A stretch of DNA of 25,754 nucleotides from a virus (Duplodnaviria > Heunggongvirae > Uroviricota > Caudoviricetes): IMG/VR virus record IMGVR_UViG_2740892213_000014; one strand, given 5' to 3'. Under the pieces are notes generated by a model, which searched no databases, was not told the DNA's origin, and saw only the letters and a list, made by a program, of their open reading frames with translations. Each line of letters opens with the position of its first letter. Positions within the stretch are counted from its first letter, which is position 1. Shown piece by piece: positions 6,089 to 17,234 of the stretch. A program made the translations under genes and the position numbers.

Positions 6089-8911
6089 ATGACGGCAGAG
6101 TACATCAGGGACTGGCAACAACCGCGCCACGCAGTGGGACGTGAAGGAACGGGGATCCCCGTTCCTGAATCCGCGCTTTCCTCCTGGCTGGATGCCTACC
6201 GGGCAGAGAACGAGCGCCGCCAGGAAATGGCTGATGCGGCGTTCTCCGCCACGCCGCTGGGCAACCTGATTAATAAAAGCCTGGATGCACAGGAAAAACA
6301 GGACAAAACCATCACACTGGCAGGAGACGCCAGAAAACAGGTACGCGGTGCGGTGGATGAAGCCATGGCCTCGCTGCGCCTGCTGCCGTCCTATCTGCGC
6401 GATCCGCTTATTCGCCACCTCTCCTTCCTGCGCAAAAAACAGGAAGCCGATCGCCGGAAAGGCAAAAAGAGCTGGCAGGCTGAACGCTACGCGCGCGGAA
6501 CCCTGCGCAAAATATTCGAACGTCTGGACCGCACCGACCACCGCTGGCTGACACCGGGTTATCGCTCCCTTGCCGGACGCGAACGCCTGGATGATTTGCT
6601 TTACCTGCCGCAGCTCAACAAGCACCAGATACAGACGCTGGCCACCATGACGGCGGCGATGTTCAGCAGCACCTTCGAAAAACTCTGCGATGGCTTTGGC
6701 GCGACTGATGGCGAGCTGACCATGGATGTAACGCTGAAGGCGTATCAGATGCTGGCCCGCATGGCGTTACACCTGCACGCCATGCCTCCGCATTATGACG
6801 CACTGACAACAGACAAAGACCGGAGGAACGAACCGGACACGGAGCTGCTGCCGGGCGCAATCCTTCGCCTGACCTGTGCGGAATGGTGGAAACGCAAACT
6901 GTGGCTGTTACGTTGCGAGTGGCGGGAAGAACAACTCCGCGCCGCCTGTCTGGTTTCCAGAAAAACATCGCCCTATCTGAGCCAGGACGCGTTAAGCGAG
7001 TTTCGCGCACAGCGCGAGAAAACACGCGATTTCCTGAAAAGTTTCATGCTGGAAAACGAAGACGGGTTCACGATTGATCTCGAGACGGTGTATTACGCGG
7101 GAGTAAGTAACCCGGTTCACCGTAAGGCAGAAATGATGGCCACCATGAAGGGGCTGGAACTTCTGGCCGAAGCCCGTGGCGACAAAGCGGTGTTTCTGAC
7201 TGTCACCTGCCCGTCAAAATACCACGCCACAACAGAGAACGGTCATCCGAATCCCAAATGGAACGGGGCCACCATGCGCGACTCCAGCGATTACCTGGTT
7301 AACACGTTTTTTGCGGCGGTCCGCAAGAAACTGAACCGCGACGGCCTGCGCTGGTATGGCATCCGCACGGTGGAGCCTCACCATGACGGCACCGTGCACT
7401 GGCATATGATGGTCTTTGCTCATCCGGAAGAAATCGACACCATTGTGTCCCACACCCGCGATATTGCCATTCAGGAAGATCGTCACGAGCTGGGTGATGA
7501 TATTACCCCACGCTTTAAGGCGGAGTACGTCGACGGCTCAAAAGGCACACCGACCAGCTACATCGCCACCTACATCGGGAAAAACCTGGACAGCCGTGCC
7601 GTGGATGGCATCGACCCGAAAACGGGCAAGCCACGCGTTGACCACGAAACCGGAAAATCAATGGCCGAGAGCGTGGAACGCGCCATCGGCTGGGCGCGCC
7701 TTCACCGGGTCCGCCAGTTCCAGTTCTTTGGTATCCCCTCCCGTCAGGTGTGGCGTGAACTGCGCCGCCTTGCCAGCCAGATGGCTCGCAACCCGGAAGG
7801 ACCGCAACGGCTGAAGGATGACGCAATGGACGCGGTTCTTGCTGCCGCTGATGCCGGATGTTTTGCCACCTACATAGAGAAACAGGGCGGCGTACTTGTT
7901 CCACGCAAGGACTACCTGATTCGCACCGCCTACGACCTCGCCGATGAGCTGAACGATTACGGTGAACAGAGCGTACAGATTTACGGGATCTGGTCACCGC
8001 TCATCGGGGAGTCTTCCCGCGTATGCACGCATCCGGACAACTGGAAGCTGGTAAGACGCAAACCGGAAGCGGAAGACAGCGCCCGCGAAAATGGTTTTGA
8101 CCTTCAGGGCGGCCCTGCCGCACCTTGGACTCGTGGCAATAACTGTCCCCGTGTACAGGAAACGGACAACAACGGGACAGAACAGCCGGAAGAACGGCCA
8201 GCACCGTGGCCGCAGCTTCCTGACGGCGTTGACGTGAACGAATGGATGCGCTCACTGAAACGGCACGAACGCCGGGCGCTGATGCGTTCGCTGCGTGACA
8301 AACAGGCAAAAAACAGCAGTGATGAAATGCAGAGCTGGACACAGAGCCGCAAACAGCAGCGGCCTTTGCCTGATAACCACGAATTACTCGCTAAAGAATG
8401 GCGGGAATCTGCCGAATCTCTCGGCCTGCATATCGGTGAACAGCAGATGCAGCACCTGTTACGGGGCGGCAGCCTGTACGTTGACGGCAGCATCATTGCA
8501 CCGCAGGGATTTGAAATTGTACGCAAACCGGATACCCGCCCGGACAGCCGAATCACGCAGCTCTGGCAGCGCCTGAGCCGTAATCACGGCGTAAGCAGCA
8601 CGGAGATCCGCCATAACCCGGTCGCCAGCTATCTGGAACAGCTGGGGGCATCAGACCCCGAAGCCGCCGCACGTCTGGCATCCACACTTCAGCAGGACCA
8701 GAACACCATGAACCCCCCCGTTACCGTGCTTTCTGACATGCTGCGCGCCATCCGCGACGCAGAGCACGCACAGAGAATCAGTGAAACCACTGAACGTGCC
8801 CGCCGCAAAGCAGACCTGCTGCGGGGTGGCCTGACCAGTGGAAACAAAAAACAGACAGAAACGGGATTCACAAATCCCGTAAATGAGCAAAAAACGCGCC
8901 GCGATATATGA
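6089..8911 (+). CDS. A: Rolling-circle replication initiator / replication endonuclease, P2 gpA family, 940 aa
   Basis: HUH-type motif VHWHMMVF and paired catalytic tyrosines in SYIATYIGKN (Y-x3-Y) are typical of gpA/phiX174-A-type initiators. Position between early genes and portal matches P2 synteny. Protein is longer than I recall for P2 A, with a C-terminal extension. Confidence 0.88.
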   Translation: MTAEYIRDWQQPRHAVGREGTGIPVPESALSSWLDAYRAENERRQEMADAAFSATPLGNLINKSLDAQEKQDKTITLAGDARKQVRGAVDEAMASLRLLPSYLRDPLIRHLSFLRKKQEADRRKGKKSWQAERYARGTLRKIFERLDRTDHRWLTPGYRSLAGRERLDDLLYLPQLNKHQIQTLATMTAAMFSSTFEKLCDGFGATDGELTMDVTLKAYQMLARMALHLHAMPPHYDALTTDKDRRNEPDTELLPGAILRLTCAEWWKRKLWLLRCEWREEQLRAACLVSRKTSPYLSQDALSEFRAQREKTRDFLKSFMLENEDGFTIDLETVYYAGVSNPVHRKAEMMATMKGLELLAEARGDKAVFLTVTCPSKYHATTENGHPNPKWNGATMRDSSDYLVNTFFAAVRKKLNRDGLRWYGIRTVEPHHDGTVHWHMMVFAHPEEIDTIVSHTRDIAIQEDRHELGDDITPRFKAEYVDGSKGTPTSYIATYIGKNLDSRAVDGIDPKTGKPRVDHETGKSMAESVERAIGWARLHRVRQFQFFGIPSRQVWRELRRLASQMARNPEGPQRLKDDAMDAVLAAADAGCFATYIEKQGGVLVPRKDYLIRTAYDLADELNDYGEQSVQIYGIWSPLIGESSRVCTHPDNWKLVRRKPEAEDSARENGFDLQGGPAAPWTRGNNCPRVQETDNNGTEQPEERPAPWPQLPDGVDVNEWMRSLKRHERRALMRSLRDKQAKNSSDEMQSWTQSRKQQRPLPDNHELLAKEWRESAESLGLHIGEQQMQHLLRGGSLYVDGSIIAPQGFEIVRKPDTRPDSRITQLWQRLSRNHGVSSTEIRHNPVASYLEQLGASDPEAAARLASTLQQDQNTMNPPVTVLSDMLRAIRDAEHAQRISETTERARRKADLLRGGLTSGNKKQTETGFTNPVNEQKTRRDI

Positions 8912-8987: not shown

Positions 8988-9947
8988 ATGAAAATTTGTA
9001 TCGACGACGGCTCCACCAACATCAAGCTGGCATGGACTGAGAATGGCGAACGCCGCAACGCCATCAGCCCGAACAGCTTCAAGTCGGAATGGTCTGCGCC
9101 GTTCGGTGGCATGCAGCCCGCGAACTACATGCTTGATGGCGTGCGCTATGGTTTTGATCCGGTCAGCGATCGCTTTGTCCAGACGACCGACACGCAATAC
9201 CAGTACAGCGATGTGAATGTAATCGCCATTCATCACGCGCTGGTCAAATCAGGCATCACGCCACAGGAGGTGGATGTGGTTGTCACCCTGCCACTGAGCG
9301 AGTATTTCGACACAAACGCACAGCCGGACATGGCCAACATCAACCGCAAAAAAGCGAACGTTATGCGCCCGGTGGAGTACCAGAACGGCGAAGCATTCAC
9401 TATCCGTAACGTGCGGGTTATGCCTGAATCCATTCCGGCTGGCTTTAAAGCACTGGCTGACATGAGTCCGTTTGAATCCCTGCTGATTGTGGATTTAGGC
9501 GGAACCACGCTGGATGTGGCAAAGGTTCAGGGGCAACTGGCAGGTATCAGCCAGGTGTTTTGCGATCCACACGTAGGCGTCTCCCTGATGGCCGGTGCCG
9601 TGCTGTCGGTGATGGCCGCTAACGGTATGCGTACCAGTCACCACATCGCCAATACCATTATCGAACATCGCCATGATGAAGCCTGGTTGCGCCAACACAT
9701 CCACAATGACGCGCATTACGCCAGCCTGATGGCGGTTATTCGTGAAAAGGAAGAAACACTGAAACAACGCGTGATCCGCGCGCTGGCGGGTTTTTCGGGT
9801 TACGGGCGGGTGATGGTTGTCGGTGGCGGGGCGGAGATTGTGGCACCCGCTATCCGCGAAGCCTGCGGAGTTAATGCGACTTTCATCGCGGACGGGGTGC
9901 CACAGTTTGCTCTGGTTAATGGGCTGTACGCAATGGACAAGGAGTAA
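8988..9947 (+). CDS. parM: Actin-like segregation ATPase, ParM/StbA family, 319 aa
   Basis: Long-range similarity to plasmid R1 ParM as I recall it (N-terminal IDDGSTNIKL, YSDVNV…HHAL, VMPESIPAG, DLGGTTLD, VGGGAE). AAGGAA RBS upstream. Confidence 0.8.
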   Translation: MKICIDDGSTNIKLAWTENGERRNAISPNSFKSEWSAPFGGMQPANYMLDGVRYGFDPVSDRFVQTTDTQYQYSDVNVIAIHHALVKSGITPQEVDVVVTLPLSEYFDTNAQPDMANINRKKANVMRPVEYQNGEAFTIRNVRVMPESIPAGFKALADMSPFESLLIVDLGGTTLDVAKVQGQLAGISQVFCDPHVGVSLMAGAVLSVMAANGMRTSHHIANTIIEHRHDEAWLRQHIHNDAHYASLMAVIREKEETLKQRVIRALAGFSGYGRVMVVGGGAEIVAPAIREACGVNATFIADGVPQFALVNGLYAMDKE

Positions 9948-9951
9948 ACCA

Positions 9952-10266
9952 ATGACGACACCAACCAGACGGATAAGTTTCTATCTGAAGCCAGTCGCCG
10001 TCAATAGTGAACGGGAGGCGTGTAATTACCTCGACAGCCTGCCAGCCTCTGAACGCAGCCGCGCGCAACGCGCGGCCTTTCTGGCCGGGCTGGCACTCAT
10101 AAAACGCGATCCTGCATTTGCCTATTGGTTGGCCGAATGGCCGGAAGAAGGAGCTGCGCCAGCCAAGAATAATATTCAGAGTAAATATGCCAGCACACCT
10201 GCCACCGGAAGCAATCACAGCACTAGCGAGATAAGAAAGAACATTCAGTCATTTTTCCCAGAGTGA
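9952..10266 (+). CDS. parR: ParR/StbB-like centromere-binding adaptor, 104 aa
   Basis: Start moved to ATG 9952 (MTTPTRRISFYLKP…), 5 nt after parM stop, with AAGGAG RBS. Segment DSLPASERSRAQRAAFLAGLAL resembles R1 ParR as recalled. Confidence 0.65.
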   Translation: MTTPTRRISFYLKPVAVNSEREACNYLDSLPASERSRAQRAAFLAGLALIKRDPAFAYWLAEWPEEGAAPAKNNIQSKYASTPATGSNHSTSEIRKNIQSFFPE

Positions 10267-10285
10267 AAACAGGAGAGGAGCATCT

Positions 10286-10747
10286 ATGGCAACTATCCCC
10301 AAAAAATGGTTACAACGCAAAATTGCAGACCTTGAATCGTGTCGTGAAGACATCCCGTTTGGCCTTGATGAAAACGATCACAATATGTTAATCGCACTGA
10401 AAATCGCACTCACATCGCTGGAAGCAGAGGCAGTTATGTTCTGTATATCAGGACAAAATGTAGATTCAGAAGAACATGTATCAACCAGCAAAGCGGTTGT
10501 TGATGCCTGGGTTGAAGAATGGAATCAGGTTGACGGAAGTCCTGGCGAACCACTGTACAAAACTATGCCACTCTACTATCACGCTGCCTTGCCAGCGCCG
10601 GTAGTGCCGGAAGAAGCAACTCCGGAAAACGTAGAAATGCTCTCTGGCTATGTTTCCACATACAAATTAACCGATAGCGAGCGCGATATTGCTGCCGAAA
10701 TATGGAACGCCTGCCGCGCCGCTATGCTTCATGGGAAAGGAGAGTGA
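10286..10747 (+). CDS. Hypothetical acidic protein, 153 aa
   Basis: ORF track; strong RBS AGGAGAGGAG. Composition is strongly acidic; no recognisable motif. Confidence 0.55.
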   Translation: MATIPKKWLQRKIADLESCREDIPFGLDENDHNMLIALKIALTSLEAEAVMFCISGQNVDSEEHVSTSKAVVDAWVEEWNQVDGSPGEPLYKTMPLYYHAALPAPVVPEEATPENVEMLSGYVSTYKLTDSERDIAAEIWNACRAAMLHGKGE

Positions 10748-10748
10748 T

Positions 10749-11012
10749 ATGGCAACTTTAACAAAAAAAGAACGGGCATGGTTGAACGAATTACAGGACG
10801 TTCTTGATCGCTGCCCATCACCGAAAAAAATTGGTTTTTACACCATTGGCGATAAAAGCATTTACCTGTATGACCTGCGCCGCATGGATGAAATCATGGA
10901 GGCTCTTGATAATCGTTCGTCAATGGATTGGTGTGTTGCTGTCCATGATATGAATGCAGGGTTTGATGAAAAGATTTTGTTCCCCTCATCAGTTGAAAGC
11001 ACAGCAGGATAA
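10749..11012 (+). CDS. Hypothetical protein, 87 aa
   Basis: Start moved to ATG 10749 (MATLTKKERAWLNEL…), 2 nt after upstream stop, with AAAGGAGAG RBS. Confidence 0.5.
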   Translation: MATLTKKERAWLNELQDVLDRCPSPKKIGFYTIGDKSIYLYDLRRMDEIMEALDNRSSMDWCVAVHDMNAGFDEKILFPSSVESTAG

Positions 11013-11046
11013 GGACCCAGCCAATATACACAACCTATAAAACACT

Positions 11047-11073
11047 AAAGCGCCTCAGGGGCGCTTTTTGTTT
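11047..11073 (+). terminator. Intrinsic terminator: 8-bp stem AAAGCGCC/GGCGCTTT followed by T-run
   Basis: Read directly from sequence, 35 nt after the last plus-strand accessory gene. Confidence 0.6.
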
Positions 11074-11099
11074 GCACAAAAGTGCACAAATTTGCACAA
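11073..11099. repeat. Three direct repeats of TGCACAA / GCACAA at ~10-bp spacing
   Basis: Read directly: tTGCACAAaagTGCACAAatttGCACAAt, in the presumed cos-proximal non-coding region. Confidence 0.3.
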
Positions 11100-11473
11100 T
11101 TTTTTTGAACGACTTTTTACCCTTCCGGCCCGCATGGCGGCTGGATCCGTCAAGGATCCGTGCGTGCACAAAAAAACGCGCTTTTTCTACGCGCAGGTGA
11201 CGGGGGAACAGCCCGCGTTTCAGGGGGTAAATAGCATTCCCTGAACGATGTCGCAGAGATACAACAGAATGGCTGTATTTCTCACGCTGAGCGTGAAAAA
11301 GACGTGAGGGCTTTTGATTTGATGGGGTGAAAGGTAAGGCCGTCAAAATCGCACTGAGACGGCGAGAACATGCAGTCAACGCGGTGGGATTGCGTAAGAG
11401 TCTGGCTGTCGATGATGGCAATAAGCAGGAAAGCGTCGTGAAATTATCTGATTGATACAGGAGCTGGAGAGTC

Positions 11474-11496
11474 GGGGCATAAATTTTTTATGCCCC
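11474..11496. other. Perfect 23-bp palindrome GGGGCATAAATTTTTTATGCCCC, downstream of portal gene
   Basis: Read directly. 10-bp stem with 3-nt loop and no flanking U-tract; possible terminator for the P-Q operon or a protein-binding site. Confidence 0.35.
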
Positions 11497-11523
11497 GGCG
11501 AAGCAGCAGACAAGCGAAGCGCG

Positions 11524-12570
11524 TCAGGATGTGGGCTGGGTGTCCAGCAGTGCATAAGGGTTAAAGCGGATCACCTCTTCGCCAAGCCAGTCATTGATGT
11601 GCTTCATGGCCTCCATGACGGGCATCAGCTCGTTAATTGCGTAAACCCGCGCGGCCTTCTCCACATCACCAAACGCACTTTTTTCGCCCGGCATCGCCCC
11701 CATCAGTTGCGGCGGAACGCGGTGCGCAGCCAGCACATCATCACGGGATGCCGCCTTAACATTCATGAACTCATCCTTTGCGGTGATCTGCTGGAACGGC
11801 AAAATTTGCACCCCCTCTTTGCCCCCGTTGGGCGCATGGATGAGCACGTTTTTAAACGCACCACCACCACGCGCACCCTGTAGCGTTTCTTTCAGGGAGT
11901 CCATGCTTTCGCGGTTTACCTGCGCTGCACCGATGTAGATGATGCACCCGGCGTGGGATCCATTGTCGTAATACAGTTTTCTGAACATGTCCGCCGAATG
12001 AGACAGGCTGGCCGAGAGTAATGCGCCAAGATATTCCGGCATGCCGTAAATTTCCTGGTTAATGTCAGGATTCATCAGGTGGCACACTTTGCCAGGGCGA
12101 AACTGAAACGCGTCCTTGCCATCCTGCACATACCACCATGATTCAAGATCGCTTCCGCGTCGCATGTATTTCGCCAGGGCGTGCCGTAATTTAAGCGGTT
12201 CGCCGAGCATATTGCTTCGAAGCTCAAGGAATGCGTTACCGAACACAAACCAGTCCAGCGCCAGCGCCGAGAAATCCTGCCGGGAAAGCAGCGGGTGCGG
12301 AATATAGCAGCCGAGCAATACATTGCGCTTAAAGTAAAGCGCAGACTGATGCCAGGACGTTTGCCGGGCAGCTCTTGCCAGACCGTACCAGTCCACCGGG
12401 GTTTCGTACCACCGCCCGTTATCAGCACAGTACATATTGTCCAGCAGGTCATGCCCGGTCAGGCGATAAGGACCATCAAATGTGAATGCACTGAGCGATG
12501 ATTCTTTCCTGAGCGCATCAGCGAGATCAATGCGTGAACTCATGCGCACTTTTTTATTTTTTCTGCTCAT
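11524..12570 (-). CDS. Q: Portal (capsid portal) protein, P2 gpQ family
   Basis: Size (348 aa) and position downstream of terminase large subunit match P2 Q. Start ATG at 12570-12568 overlaps the TGA stop of P (TGATG coupling). Confidence 0.88.
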   Translation of the reverse strand: MSRKNKKVRMSSRIDLADALRKESSLSAFTFDGPYRLTGHDLLDNMYCADNGRWYETPVDWYGLARAARQTSWHQSALYFKRNVLLGCYIPHPLLSRQDFSALALDWFVFGNAFLELRSNMLGEPLKLRHALAKYMRRGSDLESWWYVQDGKDAFQFRPGKVCHLMNPDINQEIYGMPEYLGALLSASLSHSADMFRKLYYDNGSHAGCIIYIGAAQVNRESMDSLKETLQGARGGGAFKNVLIHAPNGGKEGVQILPFQQITAKDEFMNVKAASRDDVLAAHRVPPQLMGAMPGEKSAFGDVEKAARVYAINELMPVMEAMKHINDWLGEEVIRFNPYALLDTQPTS

Positions 12571-16433: not shown

Positions 16434-17234
16434 ATGATTACTCCTGCACAACAACACTGGCAGAACGTGATGGCACAGCGCGCAGGCCGGGCGAATGAAG
16501 GTGTGGACCACGCCGCGCGTACCGCGCATGAAGAGGTGCTGTATCGTCTGCGTCTGGCACAGGCCAGGCTAAAGGGCGTACAGGCCAGAAGCGCGAAAGC
16601 CGCCATCAAAAAAGAGTTGTTGCCGGACTTTTCCGGCTGGATTGAGGGAACGCTGGAGACTGACGGCGGGCAACAGGACGAAGTAATTGCCACGCTGATG
16701 GTGTGGGCGATTGACTGCGGCGATCTTCCGCTGGCGCTGCGTATTGGTGCATATGTGGTCCGTCACAACCTCATCATGCCGGATAACTTTGGCCGTACTG
16801 CTGCCACGGTACTGACCGAAGAAATCTGCAACCCGGTACTGACGCAGGCCGGGACGGATGCCGACGCGGATTTATCCGCCTTTATCGAACCACTGGACAC
16901 ACTTTGGGAAATTGTCGCCAACCAGGACATGCCGGACGAAGTGCGCGCCAAATTATGCAAGGCGTGTGCCTTTGCCCGTCGTGGCCTGACCGATGCAGAC
17001 AACATGGCCTCATCACTGAAGCTGCTGCGCGAAGCGATGCACCTGAACCCGAACGCAGGTGTGAAACGCGAGATTGCAACCCTTTCCCGCGCCCTGAAAA
17101 AAGCCGATTCCGCAGCCGCACCAGAAGACGCCAGCGCACAGCAGACGCAGGACGAAAGCAGCAAAAGTAAAAAGACAACGCAGAAGCCTGCAACACGAAA
17201 AACCACCGCGACGCAGAAAGCAAAGCGCGGTTAA
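16434..17234 (+). CDS. M: Terminase small/endonuclease subunit, P2 gpM family
   Basis: ORF track; ACGGAGAG RBS; position after N; basic low-complexity C-terminal tail. Confidence 0.82.
   Translation: MITPAQQHWQNVMAQRAGRANEGVDHAARTAHEEVLYRLRLAQARLKGVQARSAKAAIKKELLPDFSGWIEGTLETDGGQQDEVIATLMVWAIDCGDLPLALRIGAYVVRHNLIMPDNFGRTAATVLTEEICNPVLTQAGTDADADLSAFIEPLDTLWEIVANQDMPDEVRAKLCKACAFARRGLTDADNMASSLKLLREAMHLNPNAGVKREIATLSRALKKADSAAAPEDASAQQTQDESSKSKKTTQKPATRKTTATQKAKRG

Follow-up and report, generated by a model that had tools for sequence, protein, structure and literature searches.

The interval from position 11013 to 11523 of a 25,754-nt stretch of viral DNA (IMG/VR record IMGVR_UViG_2740892213_000014; the window, at its full length) is a non-coding gap in which we place the cohesive-end packaging site (cos) of a P2-family prophage. 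The genes around it follow the order replication gene A, ParM, a ParR-like protein, two hypothetical genes, the non-coding gap, portal, large terminase and small terminase (Table 1). Identity to Escherichia phage P88 and other Xuanwuvirus (Peduoviridae) genomes is 93-97% in this region, and positions 11040-11330 are 100% identical to the chromosome of Escherichia coli MS8345 (291 nt compared). Judged by these matches, the window is a P88-like (Xuanwuvirus, Peduoviridae) prophage of E. coli belonging to the P2 family. A preliminary description had taken the gap for a cos region lying between the cargo genes and the portal gene Q, a placement that both layout and conservation bear out. It had not found cos itself and had proposed a different cos type. 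The counterpart lies within the interval that it had delimited, at 11196-11214 and in the same register as in P2, 186 and P4, and is instead a sequence variant of the P2-family layout.

The most regular feature of the gap is a set of TGCACAA repeats. Three copies, which had already been reported at 11073-11099, are confirmed at 11073, 11083 and 11093; a fourth, at 11165-11171, had been overlooked. Counted from the predicted cut at 11196, the distal copies stand at -123, -113 and -103 and the proximal copy at -31. The heptamer itself is ordinary in the whole window (9 copies found versus 6.9 expected); the phased triple TGCACAA-N3-TGCACAA-N3-TGCACAA, with up to three mismatches, is expected 0.01 times per shuffled window. 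For comparison we used the records of P2, P4 and 186, which open at experimentally mapped cohesive ends; the ends of each record were joined and positions counted from the top-strand cut. On this scale, distal TGCAT repeats stand at -123, -111 and -101 in P2 and at -124, -111 and -101 in both P4 and 186, with a proximal copy at -29 in all three. The offset from the third distal repeat to the proximal one is 72 nt in the window, in P2, P4 and 186, in Klebsiella phage 3LV2017 and in ArsFIN13, an Arsenophonus phage-like plasmid. A 55-bp core common to the cos sites of P2 and P4 has been attributed to Ziermann and Calendar 1990 (PMC5694545). The near-identical stretch of these two genomes begins exactly at their proximal TGCAT, and window positions 11165-11221 align to the P2 core with small gaps. 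The blocks of this core, namely the proximal repeat, a GC-rich linker and a 19-mer, are also present in phiT5282H, 3LV2017, KpE16 and ArsFIN13.

The same arrangement is widespread among relatives. A scan for an exact 18-mer yielded at least 120 viral contigs or loci, one of which (L116) is a chance match in unrelated GC-rich DNA; there was no P4-like satellite among the 120 viral contigs. The portal gene lies 199-936 nt to the right of the 18-mer in 113 of the 119 phage loci, the other six being cut off before the portal, and the order gene A, cargo, cos, portal recurs in P2, in 186 and in 113 of the 119 related loci. In the viral contigs, homology to the window starts abruptly at 11072-11073 and is lost to the left of 11072. 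The region is carried by 1139 of 5426 complete E. coli genomes, and most of the matches listed for these genomes start at query base 34, which is window position 11073. On this comparison, everything to the left of 11073 is exchangeable cargo. To the right of that boundary, block conservation was measured over 33 distinct sequences, from phages with portals less than 80% identical. Three blocks reach at least 95% conservation: the distal repeats together with the T-run; the proximal repeat with its A-run; and CGCGCA with the 19-mer, the latter being fixed by the search.

The spacer that separates the distal from the proximal repeats varies in sequence and is constant in length: the 72-nt offset is kept in 110 of 113 related loci, although 66 different spacer sequences occur. 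The tandem GGATCCGT that had been described at about 11143-11166 is indeed present, as two copies (11143-11150 and 11154-11161; 11 bp start to start), each of which is a BamHI site containing a Dam GATC. It is confined to the Xuanwuvirus lineage, other lineages having a single GGATCGG or nothing, and this distribution marks it as spacer filling particular to that lineage. A conserved hairpin in the spacer was also considered and rejected as inconsistent: it is absent in P2 and in relative L036, and the best inverted repeat of the window is merely the two BamHI sites.

Further evidence on the extent of the module comes from an element of a different kind, which holds a weaker match to the region in the comparison with E. 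coli genomes. E. coli ETEC1747 (NZ_CP122722.1, 4283902-4296067, reverse complement; L139, 1-9640) carries beside hpt an integrated element of about 10 kb, and elements of this type are found in 55 of 5426 complete E. coli genomes. Its genes encode an Icd-like protein, a Toprim primase, an integrase, an Ogr/Delta zinc-finger protein, a 236-aa hypothetical protein, a homologue of the P2-family major capsid protein (PF05125, E = 2e-72) and a PemK/MazF toxin-antitoxin pair; there are no portal, terminase or tail genes among its encoded proteins. By gene content it looks like a satellite that has its own capsid protein homologue. The sole DNA common to this element and to about 400 P88-like prophages is a segment of 167 bp, corresponding to window positions 11073-11238. 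Within it, the three distal repeats are unchanged, and the proximal repeat, GCGCGCA, 18 of the 19 positions of the 19-mer and about 24 nt to its right are kept as well. The spacer differs and lacks GGATCCGT, and the element is also without the hairpin found at 11473-11497 of the window.

This relation has a parallel in P2 and P4, for which cos is the only homologous region (PMC9122126). The spacer of P4 differs from that of P2, yet the TGCAT repeats are retained at an equal distance, just as the ETEC1747 element keeps the TGCACAA repeats of the P88-like phages. In each of two pairs of a helper-type phage and a satellite-type element, the repeat variant and the geometry are therefore shared, which is the best evidence for counting the repeats as part of the packaging signal. 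By analogy with P4, elements of the ETEC1747 type presumably use a P88-like helper.

Table 1. Features of the window discussed in the text, in order of position.
Feature	Positions	Strand	Basis or remark
Replication gene A	6089-8911		
Cargo region	8988-11012		
ParM, actin-like ATPase	8988-9947	+	profile match
Plasmid_stab_B (ParR-like) protein	9952-10266	+	profile match
Intrinsic terminator: 9-bp stem, 3-nt loop, then TTTTTGTTT	11047-11071	+	terminator scan; fold
Three TGCACAA at exact 10-bp spacing	11073-11079, 11083-11089, 11093-11099	+	
T7 run + GA, conserved with the repeats	11100-11108	+	
Spacer, constant length, variable sequence	11109-11164	+	
Fourth (proximal) TGCACAA + A-run, at -31	11165-11176 (heptamer 11165-11171)	+	counterpart of TGCATTAAAA, first bases of the P2/P4 55-bp core
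GCGCGCA directly before the cohesive-end equivalent	11189-11195	+	conserved; P2 GCGGGCG, 186 GTGGGCA
GGTGACGGGGGAACAGCCC, predicted cosN	11196-11214	+	register of the mapped P2/186/P4 ends; equivalent of the P2 19-nt 5' end GGCGAGGCGGGGAAAGCAC
Right flank of cos, GCGTTTCAGGGGGTAAAT	11215-11238	+	conserved in the lineage and in the satellite-like element; homology with that element stops here
Hairpin, 11-bp arms 11473-11483 / 11487-11497, 3-nt TTT loop	11473-11497	-	inverted-repeat search, fold
Portal protein, gpQ homologue	11524-12570	-	PF04860, E = 4e-18; annotated portal in P88 and MS8345
Large terminase, gpP homologue, N-terminal helix-turn-helix	12570-14321	-	PF03237, PF17289, PF06056
Small terminase, gpM homologue	16434-17234	+	PF05944, E = 1e-36

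We read the segment from 11073 to about 11238 (about 166 bp) as the cos of a P88-like prophage of the P2 family, a site for packaging and cleavage built on the plan of P2, 186 and P4, and give this reading a probability of roughly 0.78. Its layout, its conservation, its independence of the cargo and its sharing with the satellite-like element are direct observations. As an element it belongs to a known kind, of which it is an ordinary if hitherto unmapped representative; no new kind of system is involved. The earlier suggestion that the repeats are a packaging signal or terminase sites remains the best reading of them in view of conservation and of satellite sharing, the binding by terminase being a prediction. 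In the mechanism that we propose, terminase would bind the three 10-bp-phased TGCACAA copies at 11073-11099, through either the gpM homologue or the N-terminal helix-turn-helix of the gpP homologue, and would also bind the fourth copy at 11165. The 72-nt offset, which is close to seven helical turns, would set both groups of sites on one face of the helix and position the nuclease over GGTGACGGGGGAACAGCCC. The large terminase (the gpP homologue) would be this nuclease, and staggered nicks at 11196-11214 would produce 19-nt 5' cohesive ends. The cut positions at GGTGACGGGGGAACAGCCC are predicted with an uncertainty of a few nucleotides, and the length of the overhang is likewise a prediction.

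Something other than recognition by terminase might keep the repeats near cos. A DNA-bending or regulatory protein of the host or the phage could bind them, or they could serve as a homology anchor in the exchange of cargo; terminase would then need only the proximal core of about 55 bp. This would fit with a homology boundary located exactly at the first repeat, adjoining a known hotspot of gene exchange (PMC9122126), with an accessible literature that mentions only a 55-bp core, and with the fact that binding of the repeats by terminase is something we infer. We nonetheless consider it unlikely, as P4 and the ETEC1747 element both keep the repeat type of their presumed helper, at equal distance, despite differing spacers. 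In addition, the hotspot of the satellites is on the opposite side of cos (PMC9122126 and the layout of the ETEC1747 element), so that a role as cargo anchor leaves their repeats unexplained, and the constant 72-nt phasing points to a single protein-DNA assembly that includes the cut site.

The exact place of the cut is a separate matter. The preliminary description had stated that the cohesive ends of P2 and 186 are absent. This holds for P2, whose end has no site in the window within three mismatches, and the 186 end GGCGTGGCGGGGAAAGCAT reaches at best 15 of 19 positions anywhere in the window; the statement nevertheless passed over the diverged counterpart at 11196-11214. Forms intermediate between the window and the P2/186 type are provided by the predicted 19-mer of 3LV2017 and by the published, mapped end of phiRSA1, GGTGAGGCGGGGTCCAAC (PMC5694545), which starts with GGTGA as the 19-mer of the window does. 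A literature search for the 19-mer sequence did not find it in any paper. A hairpin just before the 19-mer was examined as a possible part of the site and rejected, its fold being no better than shuffled sequence (z = -0.5) and unconserved across lineages.

Several observations speak against our reading of the site and have to be set beside the evidence in its favour. Without gaps, GGTGACGGGGGAACAGCCC agrees with the P2 end GGCGAGGCGGGGAAAGCAC at 13 of 19 positions; other sites in the window score 14-15 of 19, so that this similarity is not significant alone and the assignment of the 19-mer rests on position and layout. The cut is predicted here, versus mapped ends in P2, 186 and P4. Among public records and contigs, none opens exactly at 11196; viral contigs, which are mostly prophage predictions, end 5 nt before the 19-mer or at least 16 nt after it, and never at it. 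Since the viral contigs were chosen by an exact 18-mer match, conservation of the 19-mer among them is not independent evidence. Finally, the co-variation of terminase with repeat type described below is confounded by phylogeny, and leaves gpM and gpP indistinguishable.

One more observation of this kind suggests a specific alternative, in which the true cohesive ends lie elsewhere, for example near 11118, and the 19-mer is conserved for another reason. The linear RefSeq record of P88_4B11 (NC_049391.1; L002 position 1, L004 position 1501) opens at about 11118, between the T-run and the spacer and about 78 nt to the left of the predicted cut, and the resemblance of the 19-mer to the P2 end has, as noted, little weight by itself. 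When joined end to end, however, this record runs colinear with the prophage and neither lacks nor repeats a base, as would be the case for a circle opened arbitrarily. Neither in the record itself, for which no publication was traced, nor in one candidate source paper is there any sign of mapped ends; the paper makes no mention of P88_4B11, and its sequencing relied on tagmentation libraries and de novo assembly. Moreover, the layout puts the 19-mer exactly at the cut position of P2, 186 and P4, and no other block is as well conserved across lineages as the 19-mer, which the satellite-like element has as well. Cohesive ends outside the 19-mer are therefore quite improbable, and less probable than a role of the repeats unrelated to terminase. 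The opening of P88_4B11 near 11118 looks like an arbitrary choice, one that might lead genome comparisons astray.

On the portal side of cos, the gap contains a very stable hairpin that starts 26 nt past the stop codon of the portal gene. Its fold is far better than that of shuffled sequence (minus strand, z = -3.5; plus strand, z = -4.7). No T-run follows the stem on either strand, and the terminator scan did not call it. The preliminary description had reported here a perfect 23-bp palindrome, GGGGCATAAATTTTTTATGCCCC, at 11474-11496: the sequence is present, but its reverse complement differs in the centre, making it an inverted repeat. The annotated terminators tQ of P2 and tW of 186 occupy the equivalent position past the portal gene, and nearly all lineages have a hairpin there, of unrelated sequence and in some cases with a U-run. 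By analogy, we read the hairpin as a terminator or 3'-end hairpin of the late terminase-portal (P-Q) operon; its efficiency as an intrinsic terminator is uncertain because no U-run follows.

The palindrome had been proposed as an element of cos, and the hairpin could in principle serve packaging, as a site for terminase or for cos termination, instead of marking the end of a transcript. As a perfect 11-bp inverted repeat of high stability with no U-run it is no textbook intrinsic terminator, and it is well conserved within the Xuanwuvirus lineage. Yet it is missing from the satellite-like element, which would have to use the same terminase for packaging, and in a sub-lineage an insertion of about 620 bp replaces it. 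Lineages with an identical 19-mer have unrelated hairpins at this place, some of them with U-runs, and P2 and 186 have their annotated terminators there. A packaging role of the hairpin is thus very improbable, and the suggestion that the palindrome is part of cos is not borne out.

The insertion itself, seen in phage PhiR44_2 (L003, 3057-3738) and also in L021, L028, L030 and others, lies between cos and the portal stop codon, and extends the distance from cos to portal to 936 nt, versus 313. It contains an open reading frame (ORF) of 174 aa with no Pfam match and amounts to a second slot for cargo, a small one, on the portal side. Two further details were noted around the hairpin: a direct repeat, GCGAAGC, at 11498-11504 and 11514-11520 (16 nt apart), between the hairpin and the portal stop; and, in relative L033, an alteration of the sequence beside the hairpin which lengthens the stem to about 21 bp.

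On the opposite side of the module, the cargo ends with the intrinsic terminator at 11047-11071, whose fold has an energy of -16.3 kcal/mol (z = -3.8 versus shuffled sequence). This terminator closes the cargo operon, made up of ParM, the ParR-like protein and the two hypothetical genes; it is part of the cargo and lies outside the conserved module. Phage 186 has an annotated terminator, t95b, at the equivalent position. The ParM and ParR-like genes form a partition module of plasmid type within an integrating P2-like prophage, and ParM is present in 47 of 83 related loci.

The repeats had also been suggested to be ParR-type sites. Iterated sites in 10-bp phase are typical of centromeres, and ParM and the Plasmid_stab_B protein lie 0.8-2 kb upstream of the repeats, but a parC-type centromere serving them is hardly credible and the suggestion is refuted: of the 83 loci that extend far enough to the left, 47 have ParM and 36 lack it, with no difference in the register of the repeats, and 29 of the 36 hold all four copies; phiT5282H, 3LV2017, P2, 186 and P4 have the repeats in register and no ParMR at this place; and the repeats lie past the operon terminator and past two unrelated genes, and stay with the portal-side block when the cargo changes.

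Other features of the gap were considered as well. A 42-codon ORF at 11327-11455 (+) is recorded as a hypothetical protein in the RefSeq record of P88 and is uncalled in MS8345. Its variable sites are distributed 21/17/14 by codon position, without an excess at the third position, and a Pfam search gave no match; on these grounds it is probably not a gene. Between cos and this small ORF, an imperfect inverted repeat occupies 11275-11303, with 14-nt arms (GTATTTCTCACGCT / AGCGTGAAAAAGAC) that are 86% complementary; it is moderately conserved. A permissive Rfam search of positions 10500-12000 returned gyrA RNA at 22 bits (cut-off 45) and SprD at 17 bits (cut-off 100), both of them sub-threshold and dismissed as chance matches. 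A promoter scan found no promoter across the repeat region.

Which protein would read the repeats can be approached by comparing terminases among phages of the two repeat types. Between the small terminase of the window and those of other phages with TGCACAA-type repeats, identity is 52-58%; towards the proteins of P2 and 186 it drops to 33-35%. The N-terminal helix-turn-helix of the large terminase (the first 63 codons or so; PF06056, HTH_23) similarly splits in sequence according to TGCACAA-type and TGCAT-type repeats. In 3LV2017, a P2-like start of the 19-mer is combined with TGCACAA-type repeats and with terminase domains like those of the window. This combination hints that the repeats, rather than the 19-mer, go with the DNA-binding domains of terminase. 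The gpM homologue and the helix-turn-helix of the gpP homologue are both candidate binders of the repeats. As a means of deciding between the two, co-variation is uninformative, both proteins grouping with the repeat type.

A broader proposal, tentative and in our view rather doubtful, would be that TGCA-type repeats at a fixed 72 nt form a code of packaging specificity in the P2 family. The repeat variant would correspond to the DNA-binding domain of terminase and determine the satellites that a helper can package, and the element of about 10 kb would represent an undescribed satellite family that has taken the cos module of P88-type phages.

The reading of 11073 to about 11238 as cos has several practical consequences. 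It places cos for a type of prophage that about one in five complete E. coli genomes carries (1139 of 5426), and thereby allows genomes to be oriented correctly and gives the exact boundary of the neighbouring hotspot of cargo and defence genes. The module of about 166 bp could be used in cosmids or in transducing particles dependent on P88-type helpers. More generally, its comparison with other sites bears on how P2-family terminases read their site and on how satellites match their helpers.

Three known systems offer points of comparison with this site. The parC of plasmid R1 type also consists of short iterated sites in helical phase near ParM/ParR-like genes; unlike these, the repeats of the window are independent of ParMR and tied to cos and to the portal gene. 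The cos site of phage lambda combines cosN with cosB, which comprises the small-terminase sites R3, R2 and R1 and the site I1 for integration host factor (IHF). It is similar in outline: its recognition sites are repeated, in phase and placed to one side of where the nicks are made, and their distance from the nicks implies that the DNA bends or wraps, as may also be the case in the window. There is no sequence relationship between the two, and in the window the cut lies between the repeats and the terminase genes. Lambda cosB further has an IHF site between its terminase-binding repeats, whereas the window has no match to the IHF consensus WATCAANNNNTTR within one mismatch between 11040 and 11260, contrary to the IHF binding that had been suggested for these repeats.

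P2-type terminases are reported to use circular monomers, a further difference from lambda, and the functional site is probably about 125 bp long. It is with the sites of P2, 186 and P4 that the window can be compared element by element. The differences are these: the TGCAT repeats are spaced by 12-14 and 10 bp, versus a strict 10 bp for TGCACAA in the window; their proximal repeat stands 29 nt before the 19-mer, versus 31; and the 19-mer of the window, whose ends are predicted, differs from that of P2 at 6 positions. Other features are common. The site is located in each case between the variable cargo that follows gene A and the portal stop codon, with three distal TGCA-type repeats about 100-125 nt ahead of the cut, a proximal TGCAYWAAAA 72 nt past the third repeat, and a GC-rich linker followed by a G-rich 19-mer starting with GG(C/T)GA. 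P2 and 186 also have a terminator-like hairpin past the portal gene, and P2 and P4, like the P88-like phages and the ETEC1747 element, present a satellite having only the cos module in common with a helper-type phage.

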